64,000 bases of DNA from a virus (IMGVR_UViG_3300034107_000273:32001-96000); one strand, 5' to 3'; positions 23,211-51,273 are shown, numbered from the stretch's first letter. A program made the numbers and translations. Notes: generated from the letters alone by a model not told the origin.

Positions 23211-23238
23211 ACACCTGAGCATGTGTATAAACTGCTCA
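23211..23238 (+). ncRNA. Compact H-type pseudoknot motif, copy A
   Basis: ACAC-C-TGAGCA-T-GTGT-ATAAAC-TGCTCA immediately after the Hsp20 stop. Confidence 0.65.
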
Positions 23239-23240
23239 AT

Positions 23241-23273
23241 ATTCACTTGGATTTAATCATAAGTTTACCAATT
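23241..23273 (+). promoter_or_regulatory. Putative PHO box (three 11-nt units)
   Basis: ATTCACTTGGA TTTAATCATAA GTTTACCAATT upstream of the pstS -10. Confidence 0.4.
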
Positions 23274-23312
23274 ATAACAAAAGTATATAGTTTTACACTA
23301 TATACTATAAGT

Positions 23313-24356
23313 ATGAAATTTAAATTCATTACTTTACCAGTAGCATTAGCCATTTTTGCTAATGCTTTTTTTATTACTACTTCACATGCTGATAACCTAC
23401 AAGGTGCTGGATCCACATTTGCTGCTAACTTTATAGACAGATGTAGGGTTGAATTTATTAAATCAACAGGAGATTCTGTTGTATATGGAGCATCTGGATC
23501 GGGTGCTGGTAAAAATATGTTTTCAAATGGTGTAACAGATTTTGCTATGTCAGATGTTCCTTATTCTGGATCAGAACTAAAACCATCAAAAGAATTTACA
23601 TATGTTCCATTAGTCGCAGGACCAATTGGAATTATATACAATCTTGATGGATATAAAATTACTATTAAGATGAGTAAGGATACTCTTGCTAAAGTTTTTG
23701 CGGGACAAATAACAATGTGGAATGATCCACAGATATTAAAAGAAAATATGATAGGAACAAGACTGCCAAAGATACCATCAACAAAGATCAGAGTTGTTTA
23801 CCGTATTGATGGATCTGGAACTTCAGAAGTATTTACGTCATACCTTAACGCAATTGCTCCAAATATATGGACAAAGCCAGGTAATAAAAATTTTATATCT
23901 GCATTTCCTGGTGATATATCTAAGCAATATATGAATAGTGCTTCTGGTTCACATGGCATTGCAATGGTACAGAGTACTACAAATGGATCTATTGGATACA
24001 ACGAGATATCTTATGCAAGAGGACTTAAAACTATTTCTGTTGAGAATGAATCTGGAAGGTTTATGCAACCAACAGTTAGTGCAGCATCTGTATTTCTTGG
24101 AGATTTTGTTCCAGATAAAAGTGGGGCAGTTAAAATAAATTATAAAAATCCTAATAAACTATCCTATAACATATCTACATTCACCTACGGTATAGCATAC
24201 AAAGAAAAGAACTCAAAGAATGATTCTGTAAAGAAGTTCTTTAATTTTATGTTGGATACATGCGGTAAAAAAGCAGAAGATCTTGGATACTCACCAATAA
24301 GAGGAGCTATGCTTAAGTTTGCAAAGTCAAAGGTAGCAGAAGTAAGTTCAAAGTAG
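23313..24356 (+). CDS. pstS: Phosphate-binding protein PstS
   Basis: GAGSTF, SGSGAG, DFAMSD, RIDGSGTSEVFT; signal peptide; leaderless start. Confidence 0.93.
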   Translation: MKFKFITLPVALAIFANAFFITTSHADNLQGAGSTFAANFIDRCRVEFIKSTGDSVVYGASGSGAGKNMFSNGVTDFAMSDVPYSGSELKPSKEFTYVPLVAGPIGIIYNLDGYKITIKMSKDTLAKVFAGQITMWNDPQILKENMIGTRLPKIPSTKIRVVYRIDGSGTSEVFTSYLNAIAPNIWTKPGNKNFISAFPGDISKQYMNSASGSHGIAMVQSTTNGSIGYNEISYARGLKTISVENESGRFMQPTVSAASVFLGDFVPDKSGAVKINYKNPNKLSYNISTFTYGIAYKEKNSKNDSVKKFFNFMLDTCGKKAEDLGYSPIRGAMLKFAKSKVAEVSSK

Positions 24357-24371
24357 TAGTACAATATAAAT

Positions 24372-24456
24372 GTCCCCACACAGGACCTTAGTGATGGATT
24401 AGTTACCCATTGGATAGAGACCGTGGCGCAAGTCAGGTGAATTGCCTGTGTGGGGC
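24372..24456 (+). ncRNA. Candidate structured small RNA
   Basis: TACAAT -10 at 24360; 11-bp closing stem CCCCACACAGG/CCTGTGTGGGG. Confidence 0.45.
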
Positions 24457-24485
24457 TTTAATATTTGTTGATATAATTAAAGCCT

Positions 24486-24761
24486 ATGACTGACAAAGAG
24501 TTAGTGCATTATAATAAGCAGCAGTTTAAAAAAAGACTGTCAGAGATTAAAGAAGCGTCTGGCTGCACAGACTGTGGAGTTACCAATCCAATAGTATTAG
24601 ACTTTGATCATCTCAAAGATAAAAAATATAATATCTCAAGAATGATTCATGATGGATTTTCTTGGGCAGCTATTAAAAAAGAAATTGCAAAGTGTGAGGT
24701 AGTATGTGCAAACTGTCATAGAATAAGAACTCATTATCGTTTGACACACAAAGCCTCCTAA
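24486..24761 (+). CDS. HNH endonuclease-like protein
   Basis: CTDC, LDFDH, CANCHRIRT. Confidence 0.8.
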   Translation: MTDKELVHYNKQQFKKRLSEIKEASGCTDCGVTNPIVLDFDHLKDKKYNISRMIHDGFSWAAIKKEIAKCEVVCANCHRIRTHYRLTHKAS

Positions 24762-24795
24762 TGCTATAATAGATAGATACCTATAGGAGGGTAAT

Positions 24796-25440
24796 ATGTC
24801 AGTTAAAGGATCAGTAGAAGCAATCATTGAAATTGCTAAAAAAGAACTAGGAACTATTGAAGGACCAAAAGATAATGAAACAAAGTACGGTGCATGGATT
24901 AAGGTTAATTTTCAACCATGGTGTCAATCATTTGTTTCGTGGTGTGCATTTACAGCGGGAGTTAAATCATTCCCAAAGTCTGCTTCAACAGTAGCAGCAT
25001 CAGATCAGTTCAAGAAAGAAGGACGTTGGTCAGATGCACGTAATGATGACCCAATGCCAGGAGACTGGATCTATTTTGATTTTCCAGAAGATGGAGTAAA
25101 TCGTATTTCACATGTTGGTATTTGTATTAAAAATAATGGTGATGGAACTATTCAAGTTATTGAAGGAAACACTTCAGGAACTGCAAAGGGAGATCAGAGA
25201 AACGGCGGAATGTGCGTTGAGAAGACTCGTGGATACGTCAAGAACAATAAGAAGAAGTTAGTAAATGCTGTTGTTGGTTGGGGTCGTCCAGTATATACTG
25301 GTGAAGAGAATGCTCCACTGCTAAATAAGTTGGCAGCAACACCAGTTACGTCTACATCTCCAGATGCTGCTAAGAAAGATGCAAAGGCTGCTGCTAAGAA
25401 ATCTTCTGGTGGCGGAGGAAAAGGTAAGGTAGCACTATAA
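24796..25440 (+). CDS. CHAP-domain endolysin
   Basis: PWCQSFVSW, SHVGI, IEGNT. Confidence 0.85.
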   Translation: MSVKGSVEAIIEIAKKELGTIEGPKDNETKYGAWIKVNFQPWCQSFVSWCAFTAGVKSFPKSASTVAASDQFKKEGRWSDARNDDPMPGDWIYFDFPEDGVNRISHVGICIKNNGDGTIQVIEGNTSGTAKGDQRNGGMCVEKTRGYVKNNKKKLVNAVVGWGRPVYTGEENAPLLNKLAATPVTSTSPDAAKKDAKAAAKKSSGGGGKGKVAL

Positions 25441-25658
25441 TGGATTCTAGAAGAAAGTCATTACTAAAAACCATAAGCTGGCCCTTTGTACATTTTACTT
25501 TTGTTGCTGGAATAATTTATTCTTTGCTTAAGCATTTTACTGGGGAAGCAGAATGGGAATATGTTGGTCTATACGGACTAATGTACCTTACATTAGAAAT
25601 GACTTTCTTCTTTATTCATGAGCGAGTTTGGTCTAAATTTGGTAAAAAGGTAAAGTAA
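25440..25658 (+). CDS. DUF2061-like membrane protein
   Basis: SLLKTISW...HERVW. Confidence 0.7.
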   Translation: MDSRRKSLLKTISWPFVHFTFVAGIIYSLLKHFTGEAEWEYVGLYGLMYLTLEMTFFFIHERVWSKFGKKVK

Positions 25659-26239
25659 TGAAAGTTCTAGGGGATAAAATTTTTATTATAGAAAATTTTA
25701 TATCTGTTGATACTGCAAACTTTTTAGTAGATTCATTTACTGAGAATATACAGCCAACAGTTCACCCTGGAATATACAGCGGACCAGGCCAAGGAGACAA
25801 TGAAGCCTATAAAATCAGTGGTCAACACAAGATCAAGCAATATGATTCAAAAAATAACATTGCTATTGATATAATGACAAGTCTTTGTCCAAGTATGGAA
25901 AAGGTTATGTCTAATGTATTCAATAAAAACCTACAATTAAAGTCTATTTCTTATGTTCATATGAAATCAGGTGGAAAAAATGATCTTCACTATGATAACT
26001 ATAGTGAAGAATACAAGGATGATTACTCAGGTATTTTATATTTAACAGATAAATACTTAGGTGGCGCTTTAAATTTTCCTAACAATGACATAAAAATAGA
26101 GCCTAAAATAGGAGATTTTATATGTTTTGTTGGTGACAACGAACTAGAGCATGAGGTTCAAGAAGTAATTCAAGGAGATCGTGTTAATCTAGTATGTTTT
26201 TTTAATGAAAAAGGAAAAGATATATATGCCAATCTATGA
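25658..26239 (+). CDS. 2OG-Fe(II) oxygenase
   Basis: HYD, LYLTDKYLGG, HEVQEVIQGDR. Confidence 0.85.
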   Translation: MKVLGDKIFIIENFISVDTANFLVDSFTENIQPTVHPGIYSGPGQGDNEAYKISGQHKIKQYDSKNNIAIDIMTSLCPSMEKVMSNVFNKNLQLKSISYVHMKSGGKNDLHYDNYSEEYKDDYSGILYLTDKYLGGALNFPNNDIKIEPKIGDFICFVGDNELEHEVQEVIQGDRVNLVCFFNEKGKDIYANL

Positions 26240-26411
26240 ATATAAATGTTTAAATGAATGTAATGGAATAGTAAACAAACAAAGATCTATAACTGAATCA
26301 GATCCAGGATATCTCTGTGAGACTTGCAATGTTCAACTAGAACGTGTATACTCTAATATAGGAGCAGTATTCAACGGTAGTGGATTTTATTCCACTGATA
26401 ATAGAAAGTAG
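26226..26411 (+). CDS. FmdB-family Zn-ribbon protein
   Basis: MPIYEYKC...FNGSGFYSTD. Confidence 0.85.
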   Translation: MPIYEYKCLNECNGIVNKQRSITESDPGYLCETCNVQLERVYSNIGAVFNGSGFYSTDNRK

Positions 26412-26429
26412 GAGTATACTATTAACACA

Positions 26430-26678
26430 ATGATTACAGAACAAGAAGATAAAAAAGACTGGGTATTAAAGGCTACAGATCGTTGCGATTCTTGTGCAGC
26501 AGAAGCCCTTGTTCAGGTTACTGGAATTGAAGGTGTTTTAACATTTTGTGGGCATCACTATAATAAAATTATGAACAATCCAGATGGATACAAGAAGATG
26601 ATGTCTTTTGCAATAAGTATTATTGATGAAAGAGATAAGCTTATTCAGAACAAGTTAAAGGATGAAGATTATGTATGA
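26430..26678 (+). CDS. Actinobacterial-type Zn-binding hypothetical protein
   Basis: DRCDSC...FCGHH...DER. Confidence 0.65.
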   Translation: MITEQEDKKDWVLKATDRCDSCAAEALVQVTGIEGVLTFCGHHYNKIMNNPDGYKKMMSFAISIIDERDKLIQNKLKDEDYV

Positions 26679-27078
26679 GTACTATGTTCGTAAAGTAGAG
26701 AATGTCGTAGATGGAGATACCATTGATGTTCTTATTGATTTAGGGTTTGATATTTTATTTCAATCACGTGTTAGATTAGCTGGCATTGATACCCCTGAGT
26801 CTCGCACAAAGGATCTTAAAGAGAAGGCTTTGGGGCTTGAGTCTAAAGAATATCTAAAGAAGCATTTAAAGGATGCTAAGTCTGTTGTCATTAAGACTGA
26901 AAAAATGGATTCCTCTGAAAAGTATGGTCGCATTCTTGGCTGGGTATATATTAATGGTGACACAGAATCTCTTAATGATAAGATGATTAATGATGGATAT
27001 GCTTGGGGATATATGGGTGATACTAAAGTTAAAGACTTTGATGCTCTTGAAAAAGCAAGAAAGAAGTCTGGTAAATGA
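26671..27078 (+). CDS. SNase-like nuclease
   Basis: VVDGDTID, RLAGIDTPES, KYGRILG. Confidence 0.9.
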   Translation: MYEYYVRKVENVVDGDTIDVLIDLGFDILFQSRVRLAGIDTPESRTKDLKEKALGLESKEYLKKHLKDAKSVVIKTEKMDSSEKYGRILGWVYINGDTESLNDKMINDGYAWGYMGDTKVKDFDALEKARKKSGK

Positions 27079-27326
27079 CACACGTACTTTACTTCACCGC
27101 TGACTGGTGTAATCCTTGTCAACGCACTAGACCAATTACAGATGAGCTTAAGCGTGAAGGAATAATTGATTTTTTATATGTTGATGTAGATACAGAGATA
27201 GAGTTATCAGAAGAGTTTGGCATTAAATCTATACCAACCTACATATTAATTGAAGATGGCATAGAGGTTAAAAGAATGAATGGTGCAAAAACTCGTCAAG
27301 AATTCTTGGACTTCATGGATGTTTGA
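27075..27326 (+). CDS. Thioredoxin
   Basis: FTADWCNPC, SIPT. Confidence 0.88.
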   Translation: MTHVLYFTADWCNPCQRTRPITDELKREGIIDFLYVDVDTEIELSEEFGIKSIPTYILIEDGIEVKRMNGAKTRQEFLDFMDV

Positions 27327-27663
27327 TGATGATGCCATAAGTCAGATAATAGATGACTTAATTCTTGAGGGTGGATTAGAGGTTGCAGGTATTGATCCTG
27401 ATAGTGGAGAAATGTTATATTCTTTTACTCCAAAGGTTAAAGAACTAATGCCTGAACTATATGAAGATCACTTAAATTTTGTTAATGCTGAACTTATGGT
27501 CCTGTGGGAAAAAGGGTATGTTAATATAGACTTCTTTAAAGAAGACCCATTAATCTCACTAACAAATAAGGCTCATGATCCAGACGAGGTAGCCAAGCTT
27601 TCAAAGCAGGAGAAATGGTCTCTTCAGGAGCTAAAAAGAGTTGTAAAGTCTCAAGAATTCTGA
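27319..27663 (+). CDS. Hypothetical protein
   Basis: Coupled ORF. Confidence 0.6.
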   Translation: MFDDDAISQIIDDLILEGGLEVAGIDPDSGEMLYSFTPKVKELMPELYEDHLNFVNAELMVLWEKGYVNIDFFKEDPLISLTNKAHDPDEVAKLSKQEKWSLQELKRVVKSQEF

Positions 27664-27675
27664 TATAATCATTGT

Positions 27676-28734
27676 ATGCCATATCGTGTAGGTGCTAAAG
27701 GAAGTTACGGTTGCTCAGGATACCCTGCGTTAAAAGAGGGTACCAATGAAGTAATGGGCTGTCATACCTCTAGATCAGAAGCAGCAGCACAAATATATGC
27801 AATTAATCGTAGCGAAGGAAACATAGGTAAGAGTATGCCAAATCTAAAAGAAGGCGATTACGCCATGACAGCACACGGATCTGATGAAGAGGTCCACATT
27901 GGTCAAGTAATTCATGTTATGCGTGAAGGCATGCTTGGTGTTCCTGGAGGAGAGTACTCATTAGAAGCATCCGCAGAAAACCCAGCGGTACTAATTCAGT
28001 TATTTGAACAAGATGAAAATGGTTTATGGGAAGCAACCAACCTATATACAGGATGCATGATGTCGCTCATGGTTGCAATTGATCCACTACCACAAGAACC
28101 AACTGAAGAAGAAGTTGCAATGGGTATGTACGATGCATCAATTGGAAAATCAGAATGTTGCCCAGAAGATATTTCTAAGCAAGCACCTTGTTGGGATGGT
28201 TATGTACAACGTGGAATGAAGCCAGGAAAAGATGGCAAGAAAGTTCCTAACTGTGTACCTGCTGCAAAGGCAGATGATTTATTTGAAGATGATGACACAG
28301 TTGAATATGAGACTGATACAGTTTCTAAGGCTGAAGGCTACTCGCCACCAGCAGGAGCAAGATCTGCTGCTCGCAGAGCAATTAAGTTTAAAGAAGATGG
28401 TAAGGCAACTGGTGCAGGAACTGCAGTTGGTTGGACTCGTGCAGGCCAGTTAGCAAGAGGAGAAACTATTTCTCTCAGCACTGTTAAGAGAATGTACTCA
28501 TACTTCTCACGCCATGAGGTAGACAAAAAGGGCAAGGACTGGGGTAACTCAGCAAATCCTTCTAATGGATATATCATGTGGTTAGCATGGGGTGGAGATG
28601 CAGGATTCTCTTGGTCAAGAGGAATTGTTAATCGTGAAAAAGATAAGGCTTTGTTTGCTGACTTTGGTAAAGACTACACAACATCTCAGTCATTGACGCA
28701 TATATTTAAGCCAAAAGAAAATGGTAATCAATAA
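27676..28734 (+). CDS. Modular hypothetical protein
   Basis: Leaderless start; GCH...AAAQ, PCWDGY...VPNCVP and WLAWGGDAG modules. Confidence 0.7.
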   Translation: MPYRVGAKGSYGCSGYPALKEGTNEVMGCHTSRSEAAAQIYAINRSEGNIGKSMPNLKEGDYAMTAHGSDEEVHIGQVIHVMREGMLGVPGGEYSLEASAENPAVLIQLFEQDENGLWEATNLYTGCMMSLMVAIDPLPQEPTEEEVAMGMYDASIGKSECCPEDISKQAPCWDGYVQRGMKPGKDGKKVPNCVPAAKADDLFEDDDTVEYETDTVSKAEGYSPPAGARSAARRAIKFKEDGKATGAGTAVGWTRAGQLARGETISLSTVKRMYSYFSRHEVDKKGKDWGNSANPSNGYIMWLAWGGDAGFSWSRGIVNREKDKALFADFGKDYTTSQSLTHIFKPKENGNQ

Positions 28735-28884
28735 TGCCAAAAAAGAAGGCTGGATCATTTAATGCAACACAAATTAAAGATGGAAAGGTTGTTCGTTTAA
28801 ATAAAAACGGTACAATTAAATCTATTATTAGTGACTATATTGTAAAACATCCTAAGAAAGATTAATCTATTTAACGGGGAGAGC

Positions 28885-29304
28885 ATGACATATATATTAG
28901 CCATTGGCTTGACATTGCTGTCTATATCCTCTATAATTATAATAGCAGTAAAAAGAAGTAAAAAGTATTTTACTAAAGTTGTATATACACAAAGTGATAT
29001 ACATCAAATAGTAAAAAACTTTATTCCAAAAGATCTTTTTGAAATGCCAAAACCGCTTTCTCAAGCAAGAAAGCATATACGTAATAATACAGTAAAGGTT
29101 TTGATAATAGAAGATCAGGCATATTGGGTACATAACAATATGTTTTATGTGGCTGATACAGTTGAAGGACTAGTAAGTCCAGAAACAGTCAGGCCAGTTG
29201 ATACAAACAATATGTCAAAGCGAGATATTGATAAGATGCTATTCATTTTGGATAGCTTAAAGAATGGGAATTCTGATGATAGTAGCAGTACATGGAACAA
29301 CTGA
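28885..29304 (+). CDS. Membrane-anchored hypothetical protein
   Basis: N-terminal TM segment. Confidence 0.65.
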   Translation: MTYILAIGLTLLSISSIIIIAVKRSKKYFTKVVYTQSDIHQIVKNFIPKDLFEMPKPLSQARKHIRNNTVKVLIIEDQAYWVHNNMFYVADTVEGLVSPETVRPVDTNNMSKRDIDKMLFILDSLKNGNSDDSSSTWNN

Positions 29305-29626
29305 CTTTGATGATTATCAAGTCTTTCTTCGTGCTATGGGTGTTGCTCTTTCTGGAATGCAAGACGGAGAAAAAGAGTTTATAGTTTATTCAGCAGGTCC
29401 AGCATCTGTTAATTCTTTCGTATCTGAATTCTGTAACCTTTCTGAAAGAGGAATGAAATCTCGTGGCCGTAAGATTAAATTTATGCAGGTACCTACATGG
29501 TACATTGAAGAAAACATTAATAGTGTAAATTATCTTGTATTTCTTAGCAAGCCTAAGCAGCCTGTATCAAAACTTGTTACAACTGCTGAACAAAATAACA
29601 TTGAAGTTGGAATTTTCCGATACTAA
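29276..29626 (+). CDS. Hypothetical protein (SLOG-like)
   Basis: IVAVHGTTDFDDY start. Confidence 0.5.
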   Translation: MIVAVHGTTDFDDYQVFLRAMGVALSGMQDGEKEFIVYSAGPASVNSFVSEFCNLSERGMKSRGRKIKFMQVPTWYIEENINSVNYLVFLSKPKQPVSKLVTTAEQNNIEVGIFRY

Positions 29627-29636
29627 AGGGGTAAAA

Positions 29637-29846
29637 ATGATAGTAAATAATTTAGAAACAATGGAAAAGATTGTGTCAAAGAACTACAATCTTCATTGGG
29701 ATGGTTGGACAGTAGTAGAAACAAAACAGTCTGATATGGCAAAGACTGCAATTAATGGAATTTATCGTAAAGGTAAGTGGTTCTTAGCAAAGAATTTTGT
29801 ACCTGATCGTAAAGGCTGGGATATTCCAAACAGATATAAGGTATAA
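29637..29846 (+). CDS. Hypothetical protein
   Basis: ORF with GGGG SD. Confidence 0.6.
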   Translation: MIVNNLETMEKIVSKNYNLHWDGWTVVETKQSDMAKTAINGIYRKGKWFLAKNFVPDRKGWDIPNRYKV

Positions 29847-29848
29847 AT

Positions 29849-30136
29849 ATGAAGCAACACTTATGGAAAGATGAAGGTGCTTGCTTTGATATGGACACAA
29901 ATTTATTTTTTGATAAATATGAAGACGATGAATTGATTAGACCAATAATAGATAATCTTTGTCAATCATGTCCAGTTCAAAGAATATGTTTTGCCAATGG
30001 TGTATCTGGTAAAGAGTGGGGAATTTGGGGCGGTATTTACCTAGAAAATGGTGAAATATCTAGAGAGTTTAGTAAACATAGAACAAAAGAAAAGTGGGGT
30101 GAAGTATGGAAATCTCTAACAATGGAGAAGAATTAA
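29849..30136 (+). CDS. whiB: WhiB-family Fe-S transcription factor
   Basis: C...FF...CQSCPVQRIC and GIWGG turn. Confidence 0.9.
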   Translation: MKQHLWKDEGACFDMDTNLFFDKYEDDELIRPIIDNLCQSCPVQRICFANGVSGKEWGIWGGIYLENGEISREFSKHRTKEKWGEVWKSLTMEKN

Positions 30137-30408
30137 CAAGCTTTGAAGCAATGTCTTCTATACTTGGTGAGCTTTGGATGGACTATAAGTCTGACAAATA
30201 CTTCAAAGACTTTATTGAGTATAATGATATTGGATTACCAATTGCATTTTTAGTTGATAATGAACTTGTAGAACCAACACAATTAGCTAAGCAATATGTT
30301 TATGAAACTTGGAATATATTTTTAGCAGCATTAGAAATTACAGAAGATCTTGGCTGGGAATCTCTTGAAGAGATTTTTAATTTTGTAGAAAAGAAAAATC
30401 AAAAATAA
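30106..30408 (+). CDS. Hypothetical protein
   Basis: FIEYNDIGLPIA motif. Confidence 0.6.
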   Translation: MEISNNGEELTSFEAMSSILGELWMDYKSDKYFKDFIEYNDIGLPIAFLVDNELVEPTQLAKQYVYETWNIFLAALEITEDLGWESLEEIFNFVEKKNQK

Positions 30409-36359: not shown

Positions 36360-36401
36360 CGATTCCCCCATTTTATTATAAAACAATTGTATCATGCTTT
36401 G

Positions 36402-36474
36402 TACCCCTGGCAGGAATTGAACCTGCGACACCAGGCTTAGAAGTCCTGTGTTCTATCCACTGAACTACAGAGGT
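36402..36474 (-). tRNA. tRNA-Arg(TCT)
   Basis: Cloverleaf; anticodon loop CTTCTAA; GTTCAAT T-loop. Confidence 0.9.
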
Positions 36475-36475
36475 T

Positions 36476-36551
36476 TGGAGCGAAAGACGAGATTTGAACT
36501 CGCAACATCTACCTTGGCAAGGTAGTACTCTACCAATTGAGTTACTTCCGC
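36476..36551 (-). tRNA. tRNA-Gly(GCC)
   Basis: Cloverleaf; loop TTGCCAA; encoded CCA. Confidence 0.92.
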
Positions 36552-36555
36552 ATTG

Positions 36556-36628
36556 CTGGTCTGACAGGCTACGATCCTGTGACATCCGAATTAACAGTTC
36601 GGCGCTCTACCAACTGAGCTACAGACCA
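36556..36628 (-). tRNA. tRNA-Asn(GTT)
   Basis: Cloverleaf; loop CTGTTAA; atypical T-loop GATCGTAG. Confidence 0.85.
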
Positions 36629-36632
36629 CTAG

Positions 36633-36706
36633 TGCACCAGGTAGGACTTGAACCTACGACGACCAAATTATGAGTTTGGGGCTCTAACCAACTGAGCTAC
36701 TGGAGC
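36633..36706 (-). tRNA. tRNA-CAT (Ile2 or elongator Met)
   Basis: Cloverleaf; loop CTCATAA; one acceptor-stem mismatch. Confidence 0.85.
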
Positions 36707-43311: not shown

Positions 43312-44001
43312 TTAATTGCTCCTGTCGTCATAGGCCTTTTGGTGTGCCTCACACATGTCACTGCTCCAGCCACAGTGTGGGCATGGATAGTCTGAACAGT
43401 CATCACAGTCAATGATTTGGCTATCCTCATAGGTACCGTCACAATCATTGCATTGGTTGTCATACATTGACTCACTAATTATCTTACCACGCAAGAGTTC
43501 ACACTCTCCACCCCAGCCAGTCTCTTCTTCGTATGACAAAGTAAATAATAAATCAGGGTACTGTTCAGAAAGATTAAGTAGAGCAGGCATTGGACGAGAC
43601 CATGCTGTATTAAAGTTATAGTGAACAACGTGGTTCTCACCATTGACTGTATCTTCAACGGTAGTATCAGGGTATTCATTATCTGAAGATACCGCTACAT
43701 CCCACTTAGTACCCCAGTTACGAACATTCCAGTTATACCAATCATCACCCTCAAAGGTAATTGGTAGTTCTGGTGTATGTACAGGCTGACTGTCATAGGT
43801 ATCTAGATTAGTAGGCTTAACAATGTTCCAGAATGCAAAGACAGGGTTTGGATACGTTACCTGTTGTTTTTCCATTTGATGTGTCTCAGTGCTCCAGTTG
43901 TCATGAACACGAACGAATGGTTGATTAAGTTGGTCCATCATTTTCTTGACAGACTCTGGATTGCCTTCTACAGTTAATCCGTTAAATACCCAGTTTGGCA
44001 T
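43312..44001 (-). CDS. Api92/YubB ferredoxin-like domain protein
   Basis: MPNW, WYNWNVRNWGTKWD, FNTAWSRP. Confidence 0.8.
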   Translation of the reverse strand: MPNWVFNGLTVEGNPESVKKMMDQLNQPFVRVHDNWSTETHQMEKQQVTYPNPVFAFWNIVKPTNLDTYDSQPVHTPELPITFEGDDWYNWNVRNWGTKWDVAVSSDNEYPDTTVEDTVNGENHVVHYNFNTAWSRPMPALLNLSEQYPDLLFTLSYEEETGWGGECELLRGKIISESMYDNQCNDCDGTYEDSQIIDCDDCSDYPCPHCGWSSDMCEAHQKAYDDRSN

Positions 44002-44233
44002 GGTGGTTCTCCTTTATTTGTTGGCGGTCTATACTTAAATTATACGTCAAGCAGTATAGGTCTGTCAAGCAGTCTTTGTACCCCTCTGCCCACTGTTTAT
44101 CTTCAAACTCTTTATCTTGCATTTCATTCATCATATTCTTTAACTCGCCGTGCAGGATATCAATTAGAGGAATGCTAAGATCTTCCATAGCACGTTCTAA
44201 GTGCTTGGGTAGGAATGGATACTTATCACTCAT
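43982..44233 (-). CDS. Hypothetical protein
   Basis: GGAG SD. Confidence 0.55.
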   Translation of the reverse strand: MSDKYPFLPKHLERAMEDLSIPLIDILHGELKNMMNEMQDKEFEDKQWAEGYKDCLTDLYCLTYNLSIDRQQIKENHHAKLGI

Positions 44234-44405
44234 TAATTAACTCCAATACATAGTCGTATGCGTCAAGGGCACCCATATAGAAATCATCTGACTCCCAATG
44301 GTATCCCTCTCCAGGGTCAGCACCTTCTTGTGCTTCTTCCATGTCTTGCTCAACGCTGATTCTGTGAATTTTTAAGTACTCTCTTAATGTGTTTATGTCC
44401 ATATA

Positions 44406-44621
44406 TTAATTATAAGGGTTGCTGTTGATTTTGACAAGTTTTGGTGGTGTGATGTTAGTCACAGGCTCCAGGGTAGGTCCCTTAGCATCTGACTCTTCTA
44501 ATAGGATAACTATACCCTCACCGTCACAGATGCAGGAAGGCTCTCTAACAAGATCTGAACAGGCAGTGATTTCAATCAGGGCATCGCAATCAATGCATAG
44601 ATAATCATACTTAGTCCACAT
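44406..44621 (-). CDS. Zn-ribbon protein
   Basis: YDYLCIDC...CIC. Confidence 0.55.
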   Translation of the reverse strand: MWTKYDYLCIDCDALIEITACSDLVREPSCICDGEGIVILLEESDAKGPTLEPVTNITPPKLVKINSNPYN

Positions 44622-44929
44622 AATCAGTCCTTACATATATCGCATAGGGATTCAATACAACAAATAGATTCAACTGAGCACCAATCGCACCAGTCTTTAT
44701 TAAGATTACAATTCATTAGTCAAAGTACCCTTCTGCCCATAAGCCCTGGAGGAAAGAATAGGTTTTAGCCAAACCTTCTCGTAATTGTTCATTAGATGAA
44801 CTATCATGAGCAAGCCCTACAAAATGGCTCATCTCATCTAAATCTGTTTTAGTATAACCTAACATTATTCCTCACATTCACATTTATAGTTTGGGTTTTG
44901 GACGGGTATTCTACAAAAAGGATGACATT

Positions 44930-45142
44930 TCATAGTAGGAAATCATCTCCCTCTATGTATCCATAGTATTCGTTATACTGTTGTTTTAGTTCAGGTGAGG
45001 CATATTGCATAAACATATTTTCTGCATAGTCTTCCCCTTGTTCTAAGTTGTTATTAGACCATTGGTCAAACAACTCTTCTGCAATTTCCTGTATCATTGC
45101 TCCTGTGATGTGTTCTGCTAGTGTGTCTATGAATTGTTCCAT
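44930..45142 (-). CDS. Acidic hypothetical protein
   Basis: AGGAG SD; promoter TTGCTT-17-TAAAAT. Confidence 0.6.
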   Translation of the reverse strand: MEQFIDTLAEHITGAMIQEIAEELFDQWSNNNLEQGEDYAENMFMQYASPELKQQYNEYYGYIEGDDFLL

Positions 45143-45263
45143 TTTTTCTCCTATGGTAGTTATGATATTAATTTTACAGGAAAACTGGGAAAAAAGCAAC
45201 TCCTACGTAATAAAGTTTTTAATGAATGTTTATATTATGTAAAGTGCCCCCGAGCCGTTTTCC

Positions 45264-45340
45264 TGGCGATCCGTACGAGACTTGAACTCGTGACCTCTAC
45301 CGTGACAGGGTAGCGCTCTAACCAACTGAGCTAACGGACC
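45264..45340 (-). tRNA. tRNA-Asp(GTC)
   Basis: Cloverleaf; loop CTGTCAC; encoded CCA. Confidence 0.92.
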
Positions 45341-45383
45341 AATAAGGTGAGCAGTTTTAAATCTTGCTCAGGATTTTTTTTAG

Positions 45384-46400
45384 TTATGCAATCTGCATTA
45401 CGTTTTGCACAACTTTTAGCAAACGATTTTTTTCTGCGTTAATTGCAGGGTCAAAACCACTTGCACTAGCAAGAATACTTTCGTTATTCCCACCACGTGC
45501 AGAACGATACCAGTCAAGGCGTTCTGTTAGTGCATTGAAAGCACCCCATGCGTTACCAGCAATCATGCCGTTAAACTCGCCTGTATAAATGTCGTTAATA
45601 ACATCTACCTTGTTTTCCCATTTCTTGAAAGCACCCTTTGAGTCCTTTTCAGGCTTAGGGTATGCAGAAAGGATAATGTCATTGAAAGACTTAGCATTGA
45701 CTTCTTTTTCAATCATTGCCTTAGCCATGATGTCAAATTCATCCATGTAAGCATTAGCAAGACCAAGAGTCTGTCGTGCAATAGCAACCTTACCGCTTGC
45801 TGTCTGTGTGTGACGTATCTTGAAAGATTGCTTGATACCATTCTTACGCTTTTTCTGATTAAGTGCAAGATTGAGAGTGTTAGCGCACACAACACGAACA
45901 GGTGTAATGCTTGCTTGAATAGCGATAGAGCCGTCATGTGATGTGTTGATAAGTAAATAAGTCTTTACCTTATCTGCAACACCGCTAGGGTCTAGAACAG
46001 TTTCACGCTCTAGTGCTAGTGCGCCAAATACTACACGACCGCCCTTGATTGAGCCAGCAGTTTCCCAACGACCTCCGCCGTCTAGAATGTTATCACCAAA
46101 TGAGAACAAGTCCTCATTCTGCATAACGTGGTAACGCTCACCAACGACACCAAGAATGTCTGTCTGAGAGTTGTCAGTAGGATTGGTACGCAATACATAC
46201 TGATAGTTTTTATCGCTTGTTAAGTGTGATGGAGTTTGCAAATCCTCTAGACGAACATTCCACCCATTGAGGTTAGCAAGAGCCAACATCTCTGATGTGT
46301 TTTTTTCCTCTGTAAAGACTGTACCCAATCCATGCCATGCAGGCTCTCTAAATGAAGCAAAAGAGGTCTTGCCGTTTTGTATTTCTAGGTCATGTGCCAT
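45384..46400 (-). CDS. DUF932 (TIGR03299-like) phage/plasmid protein
   Basis: PAWHGLG, WETAGSIKGG, SHDGS, PVRVVCANTL. Confidence 0.88.
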   Translation of the reverse strand: MAHDLEIQNGKTSFASFREPAWHGLGTVFTEEKNTSEMLALANLNGWNVRLEDLQTPSHLTSDKNYQYVLRTNPTDNSQTDILGVVGERYHVMQNEDLFSFGDNILDGGGRWETAGSIKGGRVVFGALALERETVLDPSGVADKVKTYLLINTSHDGSIAIQASITPVRVVCANTLNLALNQKKRKNGIKQSFKIRHTQTASGKVAIARQTLGLANAYMDEFDIMAKAMIEKEVNAKSFNDIILSAYPKPEKDSKGAFKKWENKVDVINDIYTGEFNGMIAGNAWGAFNALTERLDWYRSARGGNNESILASASGFDPAINAEKNRLLKVVQNVMQIA

Positions 46401-46625
46401 GAGTTTATTTTCCTTTTCTTTTTGTAGTTATTTTAAGTATAGCAGGATAGGCTGACAAATGCAAAGCGGGATAGTTAAAAATGGGAAAAAATGGGGATTA
46501 TTTTAATGTGTCGTAAATCACAGTGTGAGCTTGATCACGCCCCCCGAGCCGCTTTTTTATGCAACGGCATAAATAAAAATAAGGAGCAGTTTTAAAACAT
46601 GCTCAGGTTTATTAGTAGCCCCCTA

Positions 46626-47057
46626 CTAAATACTTACTCTCTCAATGGAAGAGGATAGGTATTGAACTGAGTCTGAACTATAATCAACAGTATCAAAATC
46701 AATTTCATGAATTAAGTTTTGTGCCTCTTCTTCATTACGTGCATTAACTGTAATTGAATACTGAACTTCAACTTCTAGTTCAAATTCTTTTGTTAATTCA
46801 AAACCGCAAATGTCTGCAATTTCTTGTGCTTCTGACTCATTAAGCGTACCTGCTTCAATGGCTTCAAAGGTCCATTCTTGCATTGCTTCTACCATACGAT
46901 TATGCTCTGCTGCTAAGCCGTATGAACGTTGTGTTACTACGCTGATGTGCTTTTCTAGTTCATCTATGCGTGTTTTGTTTGATGCTAACTGTGACTCAAG
47001 GAATTCTCTTGTCAAGTACATTGGCTTTTCTGTTGTTTCTGTGATTGGTTGGTCCAT
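46626..47057 (-). CDS. Hypothetical protein
   Basis: Own promoter; VNARNEEEA domain. Confidence 0.65.
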   Translation of the reverse strand: MDQPITETTEKPMYLTREFLESQLASNKTRIDELEKHISVVTQRSYGLAAEHNRMVEAMQEWTFEAIEAGTLNESEAQEIADICGFELTKEFELEVEVQYSITVNARNEEEAQNLIHEIDFDTVDYSSDSVQYLSSSIERVSI

Positions 47058-47121
47058 AAGGGCTACCTCTTTCTGTTAGTTGTTTAGTTTAATTGTACTG
47101 CAGGGCACTGACAAATGTCAA

Positions 47122-47619
47122 TTACCAAGATGATGCATAAGAAAATGACAACTTATCAATTTCTGGTAGGGCAAATAGGCGTTCTAATTGACGGATAGTA
47201 TTCTTGATATCATTCCAATACCATTCATCAATATCTGTACCACCAAAGAAAAATCCTGCTTGTGGTGGAAATAGGCTAGGGTCTTTAGTTTCTAGCGCAT
47301 GCTTACACAGTGCAAGCAATTCTATTAGTTTATCTTGTGAGACATAGTAGTCTCCACAGTCATCAATACCATTCTGAACATTCTTGACAAACCAAGCATG
47401 TATCTGATTAGCCTTGCGCCAATAAGCACAGGTAACTTCTACACTTGCTCCATAGATATCTGTTGCAACATCTGTGAGTTGTGTCAATGCCATTAGGTCA
47501 TTGAACTTAGGATATACGGCTTCAGGTGATGAATAAGATAATTCATCATTTGCTTGGAGCGCTTTCCAATTAATTTTTTCTAAATGCTTCTTAGCACTAA
47601 GGTACATGTCTAATCCCAT
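47122..47619 (-). CDS. Conserved phage hypothetical protein
   Basis: MGLDMYL, YWRKANQIHAWF, GFFFGG. Confidence 0.75.
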   Translation of the reverse strand: MGLDMYLSAKKHLEKINWKALQANDELSYSSPEAVYPKFNDLMALTQLTDVATDIYGASVEVTCAYWRKANQIHAWFVKNVQNGIDDCGDYYVSQDKLIELLALCKHALETKDPSLFPPQAGFFFGGTDIDEWYWNDIKNTIRQLERLFALPEIDKLSFSYASSW

Positions 47620-47887
47620 GGGGGCTTCCTTCTTTCTGTTGTTCTGATATTAATATAATTCTAGCAGGTTGGACTGACAAATGCCAATCGTAAATCCTGG
47701 GATCTTAAATAGTGGTACGTAAAGGGTGTGATTAAATTCACATGAGCTCGGGGGCAAAAAGTGAACAGTTTTAATTCATGTTCAGGAATGCACCGCCTCG
47801 CTATAGCACTGGCAGTAACTTTGTTGAGCAGTTTTGCAACCTACTCAGGTTGTTTGGGTTCAGGACTTTAATTGCCTCCCAAATTAT

Positions 47888-48310
47888 TTAGAGATAACGA
47901 GCAACCGCATTGTAAGTGCTTGTGCTAACTACTTCCTCATCTGTCATCTTTAGGATACGAATAGCATTAGAGATTTCCTCTTTCTGCTCACGATAGTTAT
48001 AAACAGAGATTGACTCAAAATCCCTCTCAGGCTCTTTAGGTAAATCCTTGTCTGATACTGTTAGGTCGTAGTCAATGTTGAGAGTGTTGTTCCAGTTGCG
48101 ATAGTTAGTGCGAAAGTTTTCAGCCTTCTTGATGTTAGCAACCGCATAGTCGCTAATCTCTTTCTGCCAAGCCTTACGCAACTTTTCATACTTTGCTTCG
48201 TTTGCTTCTTGTGATGCGTAGTCTGCTTCTAGTTTAGCAAGTGCTACTTCTAGTGCCTTGATTACCTTTGGTGTTGCTATCTTTACTGAGATTGCTTTTT
48301 GACGTGCCAT
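47888..48310 (-). CDS. Hypothetical protein
   Basis: Own promoter. Confidence 0.65.
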   Translation of the reverse strand: MARQKAISVKIATPKVIKALEVALAKLEADYASQEANEAKYEKLRKAWQKEISDYAVANIKKAENFRTNYRNWNNTLNIDYDLTVSDKDLPKEPERDFESISVYNYREQKEEISNAIRILKMTDEEVVSTSTYNAVARYL

Positions 48311-48416
48311 GTGTTTTTCTCTTTTCTTTGGTGGGTTATTTATAGTATAGGGGTTGGGTGTGACATTTTTAGTGTGAGCAGTTTTAATTCATACTCAGGA
48401 ATAAGCAATTAACTAG

Positions 48417-48584
48417 TTACGCTTGGGCTTTCCATGTTGTCCAGCGTGTGTTGCCATTAACGTCTAACTTAACACGAACTGTATCCTTTGATGTTGGTGC
48501 GATTTCAAGGATTGTTCCTGTTACCTTTGACTTTTGTGATGTGTAGAGGTCGCCTACCTTGTATGTGTTTGTTGCTACTGTCAT
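48417..48584 (-). CDS. Small SH3/KOW-like protein
   Basis: YKVGD...TGTILEI; AGGAG SD. Confidence 0.55.
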   Translation of the reverse strand: MTVATNTYKVGDLYTSQKSKVTGTILEIAPTSKDTVRVKLDVNGNTRWTTWKAQA

Positions 48585-48771
48585 TTTATTTCTCCTTTTT
48601 AGTTTGTTGTATGTATTAAGTATAACATTTCCCACTGACATTTTTCAACTCCATTTCTGTTATTTCTCACTATTTGAGACGCTTGCGGGTGTGATGTAGG
48701 TCACTATTGGTAAATCAGGAACACTAATAGGGCTATTATGAATAGCGGAATTATGCTTTCCATTTATCTCC

Positions 48772-49494
48772 TTACTTTTTACTTGATGAGAATACAACGT
48801 CACTCTTTGAGTATACACAAAGTGAGCAAGAAACGCAAGCGGAGCCTTGTTGAGAGATTAGGGGAATGGCTTTTTTATTCTCAGGACACTTTGCCCCTAC
48901 CTTGCCAATCATCTCTTTCATGTCTGCTTGTCCTACTTGAAAGTTTTTTGCGAGGTATGCAAGACGAATACCATGATCTGTTTTAAGACCAATACCTATA
49001 GCCTTGTTTTCGCTATCTGTAGAATAGTATAAAGATAGATTAGGAATATCTTTAAGCATTACCGCTGCACTCTTCACTCTTGTATAAACCCAGAATTGAA
49101 TTTCAGGATTATTAAGGATGACATGCTTCCATGCGAATGTATAAGTATCATTAAAGAAGTCGCCGTCCCAATGAATACGGAATAGCATAGGGGCTTCACG
49201 CTTTACACAATCAGCCTTGAAGTCTGCAATCATCTCTTCAAGCAATGCTTCAATAGTATCATGATCAGCGTCTTTAACTAATTCCCAATTATGTAATAGG
49301 TTTTTCTTTACTGTTGGGAATACCTTTTCCAATTTGCCTGCATAGCAAACACTCTCGCAGACACTCGTTGCGCCAGGACATGAATAGTTTTTTCCTGCAG
49401 GTAGTCCAAAGGTGTTGGCGATACTTGCTTGTTTTCCATTAGGGGTGACGGCATTAGCGACCTTTCTGTCTTTGCTTCTGAGTAGTTTAGTCAT
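48772..49494 (-). CDS. Gp88-like Fe-S (radical-SAM-like) phage protein
   Basis: FGLPAG..SCPGA..CESVCYA, FRIHWDGDF, WVYTR. Confidence 0.7.
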   Translation of the reverse strand: MTKLLRSKDRKVANAVTPNGKQASIANTFGLPAGKNYSCPGATSVCESVCYAGKLEKVFPTVKKNLLHNWELVKDADHDTIEALLEEMIADFKADCVKREAPMLFRIHWDGDFFNDTYTFAWKHVILNNPEIQFWVYTRVKSAAVMLKDIPNLSLYYSTDSENKAIGIGLKTDHGIRLAYLAKNFQVGQADMKEMIGKVGAKCPENKKAIPLISQQGSACVSCSLCVYSKSDVVFSSSKK

Positions 49495-49723
49495 GGTGGG
49501 TTACTCGCTTTCTTTCTTTAATTTTAGCATTTGGGACTGACATTTTTTTCTATTGTATTTCTTTTTATTTGGAACAGCTGAGGCTGCATTAGAACGGCGA
49601 AGTTCCATTAACCTTCTTAATTCCTCAGAATTTTTCTTCATAACTTAATCTTATCAGAAATGGGAAAAAATATCAAATCTCTTAAATGTGATCAATCTCA
49701 CAGGGCCCCCTCGGGCCGTTTTT

Positions 49724-49957
49724 TCAATCTAAATAAACGTACCAATCAACTTCATCATCAAATGCAAACTGAACAATTTCTGATTCACCAAAATCATTTG
49801 TTATTTGAATGTCATAGTTATCTCCTGTTGAATCACTTTCAATAAAAGTAATTTCAACAATCTCATCACCATAACCAATTAGATCCCCAATCTGTAGTGC
49901 ATCTACAGTTAGCGAATCTGCTTTGACTAGTTCCATGTCAATCATTGTAGCACTCAT
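49724..49957 (-). CDS. Acidic hypothetical protein
   Basis: LQIGDLI; GGAG SD. Confidence 0.55.
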   Translation of the reverse strand: MSATMIDMELVKADSLTVDALQIGDLIGYGDEIVEITFIESDSTGDNYDIQITNDFGESEIVQFAFDDEVDWYVYLD

Positions 49958-50098
49958 TTAGATAAACTCCGCTAAATCTCTATCCATTATTTCATTCATG
50001 TCCACTCCTTGAGTTTCTGCTATGGCTTCCCATAGGTCTGATTCTGTATAGTTTCCATCAGGATACCATTCTGCTAAAAGTGAGTATAAGTCTGTCAT

Positions 50099-50422
50099 TT
50101 ATTCTAATCCCAATCCTAATTCATAGCCTGCATCTTCTTCCCAATAGTCTGCCTCATCTTGTGGCAACCATGGGTCTAAGTGGTGTTGTTCAATAATTGC
50201 AAACGCTGGAGCGTGGCTCATTCCCTTATAGAATACTCCGTCTGGCATCGCAATCTGGCGCATGGCATCATTTTCATGGTATGCGTCAATAGCATCTATG
50301 CAAGGCTGAACCATGCTTAGTGGTACTGGTGGATAGTGATTACCTTGTAAGTGATAACCAATAGCCTGTTCAAGTGTTATGTCTAGGTTTTCTGCTAAGT
50401 CCATCGCTGTATTGTATCCCAT
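50099..50422 (-). CDS. Hypothetical protein
   Basis: HLQGNHYPPVP. Confidence 0.65.
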   Translation of the reverse strand: MGYNTAMDLAENLDITLEQAIGYHLQGNHYPPVPLSMVQPCIDAIDAYHENDAMRQIAMPDGVFYKGMSHAPAFAIIEQHHLDPWLPQDEADYWEEDAGYELGLGLE

Positions 50423-50640
50423 TATCGTGTTACCACCATTCCTGTTTTGTAGAAAGTTTTTGTGTGCATTTTGCCTGAAGGTTCAGACAAGTTAATTGTT
50501 GAGTATTCATTAGCAAGTCCATGGTCAATAAACTTTTGATAAACTTCAACGGCAGATAGGCAATCGCTATAACGACCAACCCAAGTAGTAGTAGGGTCTG
50601 AGTCATAGGTACAAGTGACTGAGTATAGGTATTCGTTCAT
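50422..50640 (-). CDS. Hypothetical protein
   Basis: Coupled ORF. Confidence 0.6.
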   Translation of the reverse strand: MNEYLYSVTCTYDSDPTTTWVGRYSDCLSAVEVYQKFIDHGLANEYSTINLSEPSGKMHTKTFYKTGMVVTR

Positions 50641-50831
50641 TAGTTATTCTCCTTATAGTTTTCGTTCATTATACTTTCAGCATACCATGCACAGTATTCA
50701 TTTTCAAGCGACACGCCCTTGTTGCAATCGCAAAATTCTGAGTCGTATTCCTCGCCACCATTACCAAAAAAGAGGACACCCTCATCATGGCAATCAACGC
50801 AATCAACCAAAAAGTCTAGTAAGTTTCCCAT
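50640..50831 (-). CDS. Small Cys-rich protein
   Basis: CVDC...CDC. Confidence 0.6.
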   Translation of the reverse strand: MGNLLDFLVDCVDCHDEGVLFFGNGGEEYDSEFCDCNKGVSLENEYCAWYAESIMNENYKENN

Positions 50832-50835
50832 TTAT

Positions 50836-51045
50836 TTATTCTCCAATCTTTACGGCTACTGTAGCCCAAAAGTCTTTTATGCCACGTGTTGGCGATACCT
50901 GAATTGCATACGCCTCAAAGTCTGAGCCGTACCAAACTGAGTCACGCTTTTCAGCATGAACAACAACACCCTCATCATGGCGAGAGTGTGAGCGATAGTA
51001 TTTTCCTACTAGTAGGCTTTCTATTGTATAAGGTTTTGCTGACAT
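50836..51045 (-). CDS. Hypothetical protein
   Basis: First gene after the promoter at 51090. Confidence 0.6.
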   Translation of the reverse strand: MSAKPYTIESLLVGKYYRSHSRHDEGVVVHAEKRDSVWYGSDFEAYAIQVSPTRGIKDFWATVAVKIGE

Positions 51046-51273
51046 TAGCAACCTGCTTTCTTTTTGTTTATTTAACTTATTACTCTGTAATCCTATCATG
51101 CGAGGCAGACAAAAAACTAATTACTAGCGAGTAATCTTAAATAGTGAGACGCTCAGAAAATGTGAGAAAAATCACAACCACGTAAAGTTATCCACAAGAG
51201 CCTGTGGAAAACCCCCCGAGCTTTTTTATTTGAAAAGATCAAGCAGTTTTAAAACTTGCTTAGGTTTTTTATT

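Follow-up and report, generated by a model that had tools for sequence, protein, structure and literature searches.

Seven copies of a small pseudoknot in a phage genome

The stretch of DNA analysed here, referred to below as the window, is 64,000 nucleotides (nt) long and corresponds to bases 32001-96000 of the 107,956-bp phage genome IMGVR_UViG_3300034107_000273 from IMG/VR, with a G+C content of 36.5%. The DnaE-type polymerase of this phage is about 55% identical to the DnaE-type polymerases of Streptomyces phages, and both near and distant DNA searches of the phage collection returned no close relative of the phage. An initial annotation of the window had pointed out seven copies of a short H-type pseudoknot on the 3′ side of genes. 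A mismatch-tolerant scan of the whole genome yielded exactly these seven copies at the annotated places, all of them inside the window, and a covariance model built later recovered the same seven and no others from the window, with scores of 38-53 bits. The element is 28-29 nt long and on the sense strand runs in the order P1a (ending in C), a single C (L1), UGAGCA (P2a), a junction base (A, U or G), P1b (beginning with G), one or two variable bases, AAAC and UGCUCA (P2b). One copy lies on the plus strand (23211-23238) and six on the minus strand, and all are in sense orientation and 3′ of a stop codon. The exact palindrome TGAGCA-N9-13-TGCTCA was observed twice, against 0.02 occurrences expected.

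Spans are given here from the first P1 pair to the end of P2b, and distances from stop codons are measured to the L1 C. Copy 1 (23211-23238, plus strand, ACAC-C-TGAGCA-T-GTGT-ATAAAC-TGCTCA, 50.3 bits) has its L1 C at 23215, 9 nt after the stop codon of a gene (22783-23205, plus strand) for a 140-amino-acid small heat-shock protein of the Hsp20 family (Pfam HSP20, 4.8e-18). Copy 2 (45348-45376, minus strand, AAATC-C-TGAGCA-A-GATTT-AAAAC-TGCTCA, 52.8 bits) lies 12 nt after the stop codon of a gene (45384-46400, minus strand) for a 338-amino-acid DUF932 protein (Pfam DUF932, 2.3e-46), and tRNA-Asp(GTC) (45264-45340, minus strand) begins 7 nt past it. The other five copies, all on the minus strand, follow open reading frames (ORFs). 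Copy 3 (46583-46610, AAAC-C-TGAGCA-T-GTTT-TAAAAC-TGCTCC, 46.0 bits) is found 19 nt after the stop of a 143-amino-acid ORF (46626-47057), whereas copies 4 and 5 form a tandem pair, copy 4 (47825-47852, CAAC-C-TGAGTA-G-GTTG-CAAAAC-TGCTCA, 40.4 bits) being 39 nt after the stop of a 140-amino-acid ORF (47888-48310) and copy 5 (47762-47789, ATTC-C-TGAACA-T-GAAT-TAAAAC-TGTTCA, 39.8 bits) 63 nt farther downstream. Copy 6 (48375-48402, ATTC-C-TGAGTA-T-GAAT-TAAAAC-TGCTCA, 43.7 bits) lies 18 nt after a 74-amino-acid ORF (48417-48641) and copy 7 (51240-51268, AAAAC-C-TAAGCA-A-GTTTT-AAAAC-TGCTTG, 38.1 bits) 10 nt after a 68-amino-acid ORF (51274-51480). The tandem pair and the position of one copy before tRNA-Asp are as initially annotated; the statement that every copy shortly follows a stop codon holds for six of them, copy 5 being 102 nt away.

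Covariation of the two stems

Among the window copies P1a is 4-5 nt long, and the sequence of P1 changes almost every time while its pairing is always kept, as had been claimed. A compensated P2 had been described as well, and this proved correct with one exception. Copy 5 (UGAACA/UGUUCA) and copy 7 (UAAGCA/UGCUUG, with one compensated change and one U.G pair) carry compensated changes, and copies 4 and 6 have G.U variants (TGAGTA/TGCTCA) that are paired on the sense strand only, but in copy 3, with TGCTCC, the last P2 pair is unformed. Nested folding of the copies gave P2 only (-3.8 to -9.2 kcal/mol, z-scores of -1.8 to -4.0) and left P1 in the loop, as is expected for a knot.

The same element was found far beyond this phage. 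An exact-pattern scan of viral contigs gave at least 119 loci and a scan of the same type of species-representative bacterial genomes at least 119 more, in many phyla; among the genome matches listed, Saccharibacteria were many and beta- and gamma-proteobacteria few. About 15% of the bacterial-genome matches were without P1 pairing and are probably due to chance. The family statistics reported here rest on samples of 124, 133, 294, 300 or 303 copies drawn from the matches listed. Across about 300 non-redundant copies from viral contigs and bacteria of many phyla, both stems covary, fully compensated P2 variants included. P1 has 3-5 base pairs (bp) of free sequence with a closing C-G pair. In 124 ungapped copies the three inner P1 pairs are essentially always paired with up to four pair types, P1 pairs 6-19 and 7-18 being unpaired in no copy and showing 3-4 pair types each, and 122 copies have C-G as the closing pair, which the search pattern had left free. 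The covariation observed in these copies was reached by none of 500 shuffles and was lost when the partners were slid against each other. L1 was C in all 192 matches of a scan that permitted a mismatch there. Because the first copies had been found through an exact P2, variants of this stem were sought with a scan that tolerated P2 mismatches without rewarding pairing, and also among the small-ORF loci described below. UAAGCA was found with UGCUUA, UGCUUG or UGCUUU at nine loci or more, and further compensated variants were UGAACA/UGUUCA, UGGACA/UGUCCA, UGGGUA/UACCCA, UGAGUA/UACUCA and CGGGCA/UGCCCG. With both stems covarying and the G.U pairs confined to the sense strand, the initial description of a sense-strand pseudoknot tied to gene 3′ ends is confirmed.

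P1 is stacked on the 6-bp P2, the single invariant C crosses P2, and the loop that ends in AAAC after P1b could lie along P1. Over positions -40 to +94 mutual information revealed no extra helices; in 294 non-redundant copies the only signals were P1, P2 and the base before AAAC against P1 pair -3:10. In about 300 aligned copies this base (position 13, with the L1 C as 0) is A with A-U or U-A, U with C-G, and U or A with G-C at pair -3:10, which may reflect a minor-groove base triple or the kinship of the copies. A recurrent subtype has AAAAGGCUCA in place of AAACUGCUCA, thereby losing the A6-U18 pair, and often stands beside canonical copies in one phage (loci L006, L025, L035, L043, L080, L082, L109, L110, L115 and others). 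A scan for any P1/P2 topology gave hundreds of chance matches, so topology alone is not evidence and only the sequence-anchored motif is informative.

A fixed core length (24 nt in 120 of 133 copies) with two conserved boxes could also be expected of a signal at the DNA level, either folded single-stranded DNA or a duplex acting as a promoter, priming site or protein operator. Transcribed units, namely tRNAs, DUF2800 RNA and 5′ untranslated regions (UTRs), start just after the knot, and the upstream genes ArdA, SSB and DUF932 are typical of early-entering regions, as would suit such a signal. We nevertheless regard it as most improbable, since G.U-type variants pair on the sense strand only, a duplex site leaves two interleaved covarying stems unexplained, the sharp stop-codon spacing described below points to translation, and the motif spans phyla and phages of differing polymerases, a T7-like phage included. 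Sigma-70, sigma-54 and phage-polymerase promoters were rejected because the spacing of the boxes does not fit and the covariation would be unexplained.

Novelty of the family

When the window was searched against Rfam 15 (4227 families including preQ1, pistol, hammerhead, twister, RAGATH and UPD-PK), only tRNAs reached the gathering threshold, and up to E = 10 no family was placed on any copy within 45200-48500. A covariance-model and Rfam search had been proposed with the initial annotation as a check on novelty; it recovered the family and gave no Rfam 15 match that would remove it. The motif is not mentioned in the paper on mycobacteriophage Patience and was not found by literature searches on sequence words. 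It is apparently a widespread RNA motif that is both uncatalogued and undescribed. Its carriers include the Patience-type Mycobacterium phage Labelle, with one copy after gp85 and upstream of tRNA-Gln, cyanophage S-RIM4, with one copy after a Kyano_Gp96 gene, and the T7-like Paracoccus phage ParKuw1, also with one copy. Pistol and hepatitis delta virus-like ribozymes were rejected, since their architecture differs and no Rfam match was found.

The preQ1-I riboswitch, of about 30-34 nt, has a hairpin, an A-rich tail and a 3′ strand that pairs with the loop. The element shares this topology, but it leaves no space for a ligand pocket, is not accompanied by an expression platform, shows no connection with queuosine genes and matches nothing in Rfam. 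One could imagine, from the H-type topology and the A-rich loop, either a small-molecule riboswitch of this kind or an anti-defence decoy that mimics a type III antitoxin, and the early-gene regions beside ArdA- and DUF932-type genes, with several copies in this genome, would be a natural setting for the latter. Both are very improbable in our view. Antitoxin mimicry, one of the roles suggested initially, finds no support in tandem 36-nt arrays, of which there are none, or in a linked toxin gene, of which none was seen in searches not aimed at ToxN; the copies in this phage are scattered over the ends of different genes (DUF932, Hsp20 and small unknowns), and the motif occurs in many phyla, at ordinary chromosomal loci with unrelated neighbours too. 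As for a riboswitch, the gene contexts have no common metabolic theme, the Rfam preQ1 families do not match, and no preQ1-I-like pocket is apparent because L1 and the junction are 1 nt each.

Resemblance to coremin

The likeness that appears most informative is to coremin (xrRNA-C), an exonuclease-resistant RNA (xrRNA) motif of plant and fungal RNA viruses, among them beny-, cucumo- and many other viruses, which also has a Watson-Crick variant, xrRNA-WCC (Dilweg et al. 2019, PMC6546385; 2023, PMC10520033; 2023, PMC10321173). It reads GUC[CGAA]GAC-GUUAAACUAC, with a second hairpin after it; a C-G closing pair, a pyrimidine as first loop base, a loop ending in A-D and the spacer A16-A20 are essential, the length of the spacer matters, and loops of 6-8 nt that begin with CG are functional too, although the loop CCGAAA, with its G third, failed to stall Xrn1 (PMC6546385, PMC10520033, PMC10321173). 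Coremin occurs in 3′ UTRs, in intergenic regions and around stop codons, at times in tandem; it stalls Xrn1, for which the spacer must be followed immediately by another hairpin, of 4 bp or more, blocks scanning ribosomes and drives -1 frameshifting, and variants of it have been selected in a frameshifting screen in E. coli (PMC6546385, PMC10520033, PMC10321173). It has been modelled as an H-type knot with an S1 hairpin, a one-base L1, an S2 that joins loop bases 6-8 with bases 18-20, and an A-rich loop in the minor groove of S1, and Watson-Crick variants were confirmed by compensatory mutation (PMC6546385, PMC10520033, PMC10321173).

The phage consensus, GUC-C-UGAGCA-U-GAC-UUAAAAC-UGCUCA, agrees with coremin in many of these respects. 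Coremin is modelled as an H-type knot of equal size, both have an S1 of 3-5 bp with a GUC/GAC consensus and an obligatory closing C-G pair, and L1 is one pyrimidine, which in the phage and bacterial element is C. The penultimate loop A pairs with the U that follows AAAC, and the last loop base faces the C of AAAC; among 294 copies this last base, W in the consensus, is T in 151, A in 109, C in 28 and G in 6, so that a C, excluded in coremin, stands there in about 10% of copies. The loop from S1 to this C is 6 nt long with AAA at its end in both, and AAAC-U is invariant or nearly so, the next base being a G paired in P2 here and A20 in coremin. The usual place, a 3′ UTR or stop codon region, is shared as well, as is the occasional tandem arrangement, of which this phage has one pair. 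The differences are that the element has an 8-nt loop (C-U-G-A-G-C-A-W) with the G third, whereas the coremin consensus is YGAD, YGNNAD or a longer loop starting with CG, that its S2 has six Watson-Crick pairs as against 0-3 in coremin, and that its carriers are DNA phages and bacteria, which are without Xrn1. We do not count the element as a member of coremin because it departs from it in two defining features, the loop consensus and the second hairpin, which it lacks; judged by its sequence, it would work like a coremin-type knot.

Other exonuclease-resistant knots are more distant. The class 3 plant-virus xrRNAs of the dianthovirus and polerovirus type, as reportedly described by Steckelberg et al. 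in 2018, are said to be about 44 nt long, with an internal loop and other conserved bases. In them too the apical loop of a hairpin pairs with the adjoining 3′ sequence, giving a knot that halts a 5′→3′ exonuclease, but in size, internal loop and conserved bases they are unlike the element, and we saw no resemblance in sequence.

Position of the knot at gene ends

For 118 of 133 copies, the end of an ORF on the same strand lies no more than 150 nt upstream. Distances from the stop codon to L1 are cut off sharply below 9 nt and are most often 9-10 nt; at the lower limit the first P1 pair is 4-6 nt from the stop. About 4-6 nt is roughly the nearest that a structure can sit to the A-site codon without being unwound by the ribosome, and it is also the spacing of frameshift signals. 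The knot sits just outside the footprint of a ribosome that terminates on the upstream gene. Where the spacer between genes is long (more than 120 nt), 90 of 104 copies are nearer the upstream stop and only 9 are within 40 nt of the next start. In about one third of cases the next gene begins 19-38 nt past the knot, with a ribosome-binding site between them.

The knot may also directly precede a non-coding RNA. Of 303 copies, 23 are followed by a tRNA (Asp, Arg, Leu, Val, Met or Gln) that begins 3-13 nt after the knot, and none comes after one. In several cases the Rfam DUF2800 RNA (RF02960, 121-160 bits; loci L019:261-445, L208:888-1071, L149:5408-5592, L168, L211 and L231) starts right at the end of the pseudoknot, which may be an unrecognised 5′ module of this RNA. 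A tRNA that starts 3-13 nt after the knot must be co-transcribed with it, so that the termination signal suggested initially is not supported. An intrinsic terminator was likewise rejected, since a T-run (TTTT within 12 nt) follows in only 17% of copies and tRNAs come directly after, and no terminator-like site was found at any copy in the window. The six bases past P2b are poor in G, with 2-9% as against about 22%. The pentamer UGCUC is common to P2b and, we take it, to rrn boxA; an antitermination site of that kind was rejected because the bases past UGCUC are not conserved.

Boundary positions before tRNAs, DUF2800 RNA and ribosome-binding sites could also mean that the knot is a recognition or processing site, for RNase P, Z, E or Y or for a conserved protein, or else a tiny self-cleaving ribozyme, which would part the upstream mRNA from the downstream RNA. 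The invariance of L1, P2 and AAAC across phyla would agree with this, as would the stack of P1 and P2, whose 10-12 bp equal the length of the tRNA acceptor/T arm, and the tandem copies, which recall phage ribozymes. However, CCA was seen past P2b 22 times where column frequencies predict 17, which is no enrichment and led us to reject a tRNA acceptor mimic serving as a substrate of RNase P or the CCA enzyme; there is no equivalent of a T-loop, no match to an Rfam ribozyme or other family even at E = 10, and no co-occurring protein was found among the neighbours, which are diverse. We know of no precedent for a natural ribozyme of 28 nt. A processing signal, also named in the initial annotation, is on balance improbable.

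Stop codons inside the knot

At many bacterial loci the knot is associated with a free-standing ORF of 20-26 codons, MKRFxVPRxAHCSEGC..., which occurs in many phyla (L183:1149-1208, L194:1639-1698 and L222:5301-5360, all on the plus strand, L249, L253, L257 and about 40 more). Three registers were seen for its stop codon, which may overlap P1a, be the UGA of P2a or be another UGA placed at the junction. Often a terminator hairpin comes next. Unrelated housekeeping genes flank the ORF, and in a few members the knot is replaced by a simple hairpin. The peptide matched no family in Pfam or NCBIfam, and no partner protein was found among the neighbours at these chromosomal loci. Saccharibacteria have another arrangement (L142:3690-3835, plus strand, and likewise L121, L152, L174 and L221) in which a -10-like TACAAT is followed by a promoter-proximal ORF of 14 codons (MSSDREQWAGPEHD) whose TAA lies inside the A-rich loop, and a ribosome-binding site and a 138-amino-acid ORF that begins 21 nt past the 14-codon ORF come next; this looks like a leader peptide. 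Where the stop lies within the knot, as in both settings, the ribosome can reach it only by unfolding the knot. Links of the knot with a terminating ribosome thus recur, here in a geometry unlike that of the phage copies.

These cases bring up the alternative that the knot is directed at the ribosome itself. A ribosome with the stop codon in its A site would have the knot at its mRNA entry channel, and the knot would block read-through or sliding ribosomes and insulate the translation of neighbouring units; where the stop is in the knot, translation of the small ORF would be coupled to its unfolding. The first P1 pair keeps a sharply limited distance of at least 4-6 nt from the stop, which is the geometry of a frameshift stimulator, the stop lies in or at the knot in the 20-26-amino-acid ORF family and in the Saccharibacteria leader ORF, coremin blocks scanning ribosomes and stimulates frameshifting, and the ribosome would be a universal partner. 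What makes this distinctly unlikely, in our estimate, is that no useful recoding product would arise, many copies lie 20-130 nt from the stop, and no benefit from blocking terminated ribosomes is known. A programmed -1 frameshift or read-through stimulator in particular was rejected because the frames past the stop are short in all three phases, with medians of 9 codons in frame 0, 6 in -1 and 3 in +1 (n = 109).

In the -1 frameshifting knot of luteovirus type, as in beet western yellows virus, 28 nt form a compact H-type fold: L1 contains a C, the junction is a single base, and an A-rich loop occupies the minor groove of S1. The element resembles it in size, fold, L1 base, junction and A-rich loop and in lying 5-8 nt from the A-site codon, but here this codon is a stop, there is no slippery site or extended frame, and S2 has 6 bp rather than 3. 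The luteovirus-type frameshifting pseudoknot is not resistant to Xrn1 (PMC10321173).

A possible roadblock at gene ends

Our tentative preference, which falls somewhat short of a probable explanation, is that the seven elements act in cis as mechanical roadblocks and belong to a widespread, uncatalogued pseudoknot family, the phage and bacterial counterpart of coremin. The knot would halt enzymes that travel along the transcript, and the likeliest targets would arrive from its 5′ side: a 5′→3′ exonuclease of the RNase J type, scanning RNase E, or stray or post-termination ribosomes. Decay of, or traffic on, the upstream gene would then end at the gene end, and the fate of the RNA beyond it, whether the next cistron, a tRNA, a short 3′ fragment or DUF2800 RNA, would no longer be tied to that gene. 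An exonuclease block had been among the roles proposed initially, and it is the one best backed by comparison because of the resemblance to coremin/xrRNA-C, a precedent that is limited to a 5′→3′ enzyme. Two points lead us to favour a block in this direction: conservation falls on the positions on which the stalling of Xrn1 by coremin depends, and in many cases a ribosome-binding site, a tRNA or a non-coding RNA comes directly after the knot; in our analysis a barrier to 3′→5′ enzymes would serve nearly as well. The conservation of sequence across phyla fits a self-contained tertiary fold that acts on universal machinery.

Several observations weigh against a roadblock of the coremin kind. The loop of the element has a U before the G, the order that failed in coremin as CCGAAA. 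A hairpin 0-2 nt past P2b is depleted, being present in 9.5% of 294 copies as against 16-24% at shifted controls, and the 30 nt downstream of P2b also fold more weakly than controls. Of five genomes with the motif that were checked for RNase J, three have the enzyme and two, both proteobacterial bins, do not, a distribution that fits dependence on it and independence alike. In the small-ORF class the stop within the knot forces its unfolding by the ribosome. In 57 of 300 copies the nearest downstream ORF is on the opposite strand, which fits a role at the 3′ end of the upstream mRNA at least as well. Finally, the knot tracks the upstream gene family and not the downstream gene: it is found within 120 nt after homologues of DUF932 in 24 of 27 other loci and follows homologues of Hsp20 in 11 of 12 other phage loci, while none of 13-18 homologues of the neighbour genes that are knot-free in this phage carries it elsewhere. 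Other upstream families at related loci are DUF3768, ArdA, SSB and DUF2958.

The last of these points suggest a different kind of barrier, one that would hold back the 3′→5′ exonucleases PNPase and RNase II/R and so stabilise the upstream mRNA, as intercistronic stabiliser hairpins do; the guarded 3′ end would be made by RNase P at the following tRNA or by an endonuclease in the G-poor tail. Such a barrier would explain why the knot is anchored to the upstream stop codon and kept with DUF932 and Hsp20 genes and not with knot-free neighbours, why an opposite-strand ORF may come next, as at the end of a transcription unit, why tRNAs stand so close downstream that RNase P would leave a very short tail, and why the six bases past P2b are poor in G. 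On the other hand a plain barrier would need no conservation of sequence across phyla, a 6-bp P2 with three G-C pairs offers little hindrance to unzipping from its 3′ end, conservation is found at the positions that coremin needs for a 5′→3′ block, and a terminator hairpin is already present in the small-ORF class. We consider it unlikely, with a real chance of being right. Known stabilisers at gene ends and between cistrons are the REP hairpins, the T7 RNase III sites and the Mu-gpT downstream element, which are plain hairpins of family-specific sequence. They resemble the element in being structures placed right after a gene within operons, where they are thought to set segmental mRNA stability, but to our knowledge none of them is a pseudoknot conserved across phyla.

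If the elements are roadblocks, they would be the smallest known natural module that stops a nuclease or the ribosome, and also the first xrRNA-type elements known from bacteria and DNA phages. They would explain how the stability of cistrons, tRNAs and non-coding RNAs is uncoupled in compact phage operons without terminators, would tie a plant-virus RNA element to a motif found across many bacterial phyla, and would offer a 28-nt part for the control of RNA stability in engineered bacteria. The more specific proposal, that this is a true exonuclease-resistant RNA class of bacteria and DNA phages, a 28-nt knot related to coremin by descent or convergence that would arrest ribosomes and 5′→3′ decay of the RNase J type where genes end and would leave the RNAs beyond them stable, is somewhat doubtful on the comparisons made here. 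Should it hold, the xrRNA principle would be universal and not just a trick of eukaryotic viruses against Xrn1. Direct testing is feasible in cultured carriers, namely Labelle and other Patience-type phages, S-RIM4 and ParKuw1.

Other features of the window

Six of the seven pseudoknots lie in the region 44000-53000 (minus strand). Besides many small minus-strand ORFs it has those of the DUF932 protein, a member of the GP88 family and unknowns, and it has the appearance of a region for early or anti-defence genes. Four clustered tRNA genes, 1-3 nt apart, at 36401-36706 (minus strand; Arg-TCT, Gly-GCC, Asn-GTT and Met-CAT) have no pseudoknot before them. The motif GCTCGGGGG occurs four times, against 0.03 expected, at 45247-45255, 46541-46549 and 51213-51221 on the minus strand and at 47746-47754 on the plus strand, usually with an A-run before it. 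Each occurrence is 8-35 nt past a pseudoknot or just past tRNA-Asp, once in the opposite orientation, and CTTTACG-like and extended -10 promoter-like sequences (TGnTAnAAT) come after it; GCTCGGGGG may be a regulator site or a piece of early-promoter regions.

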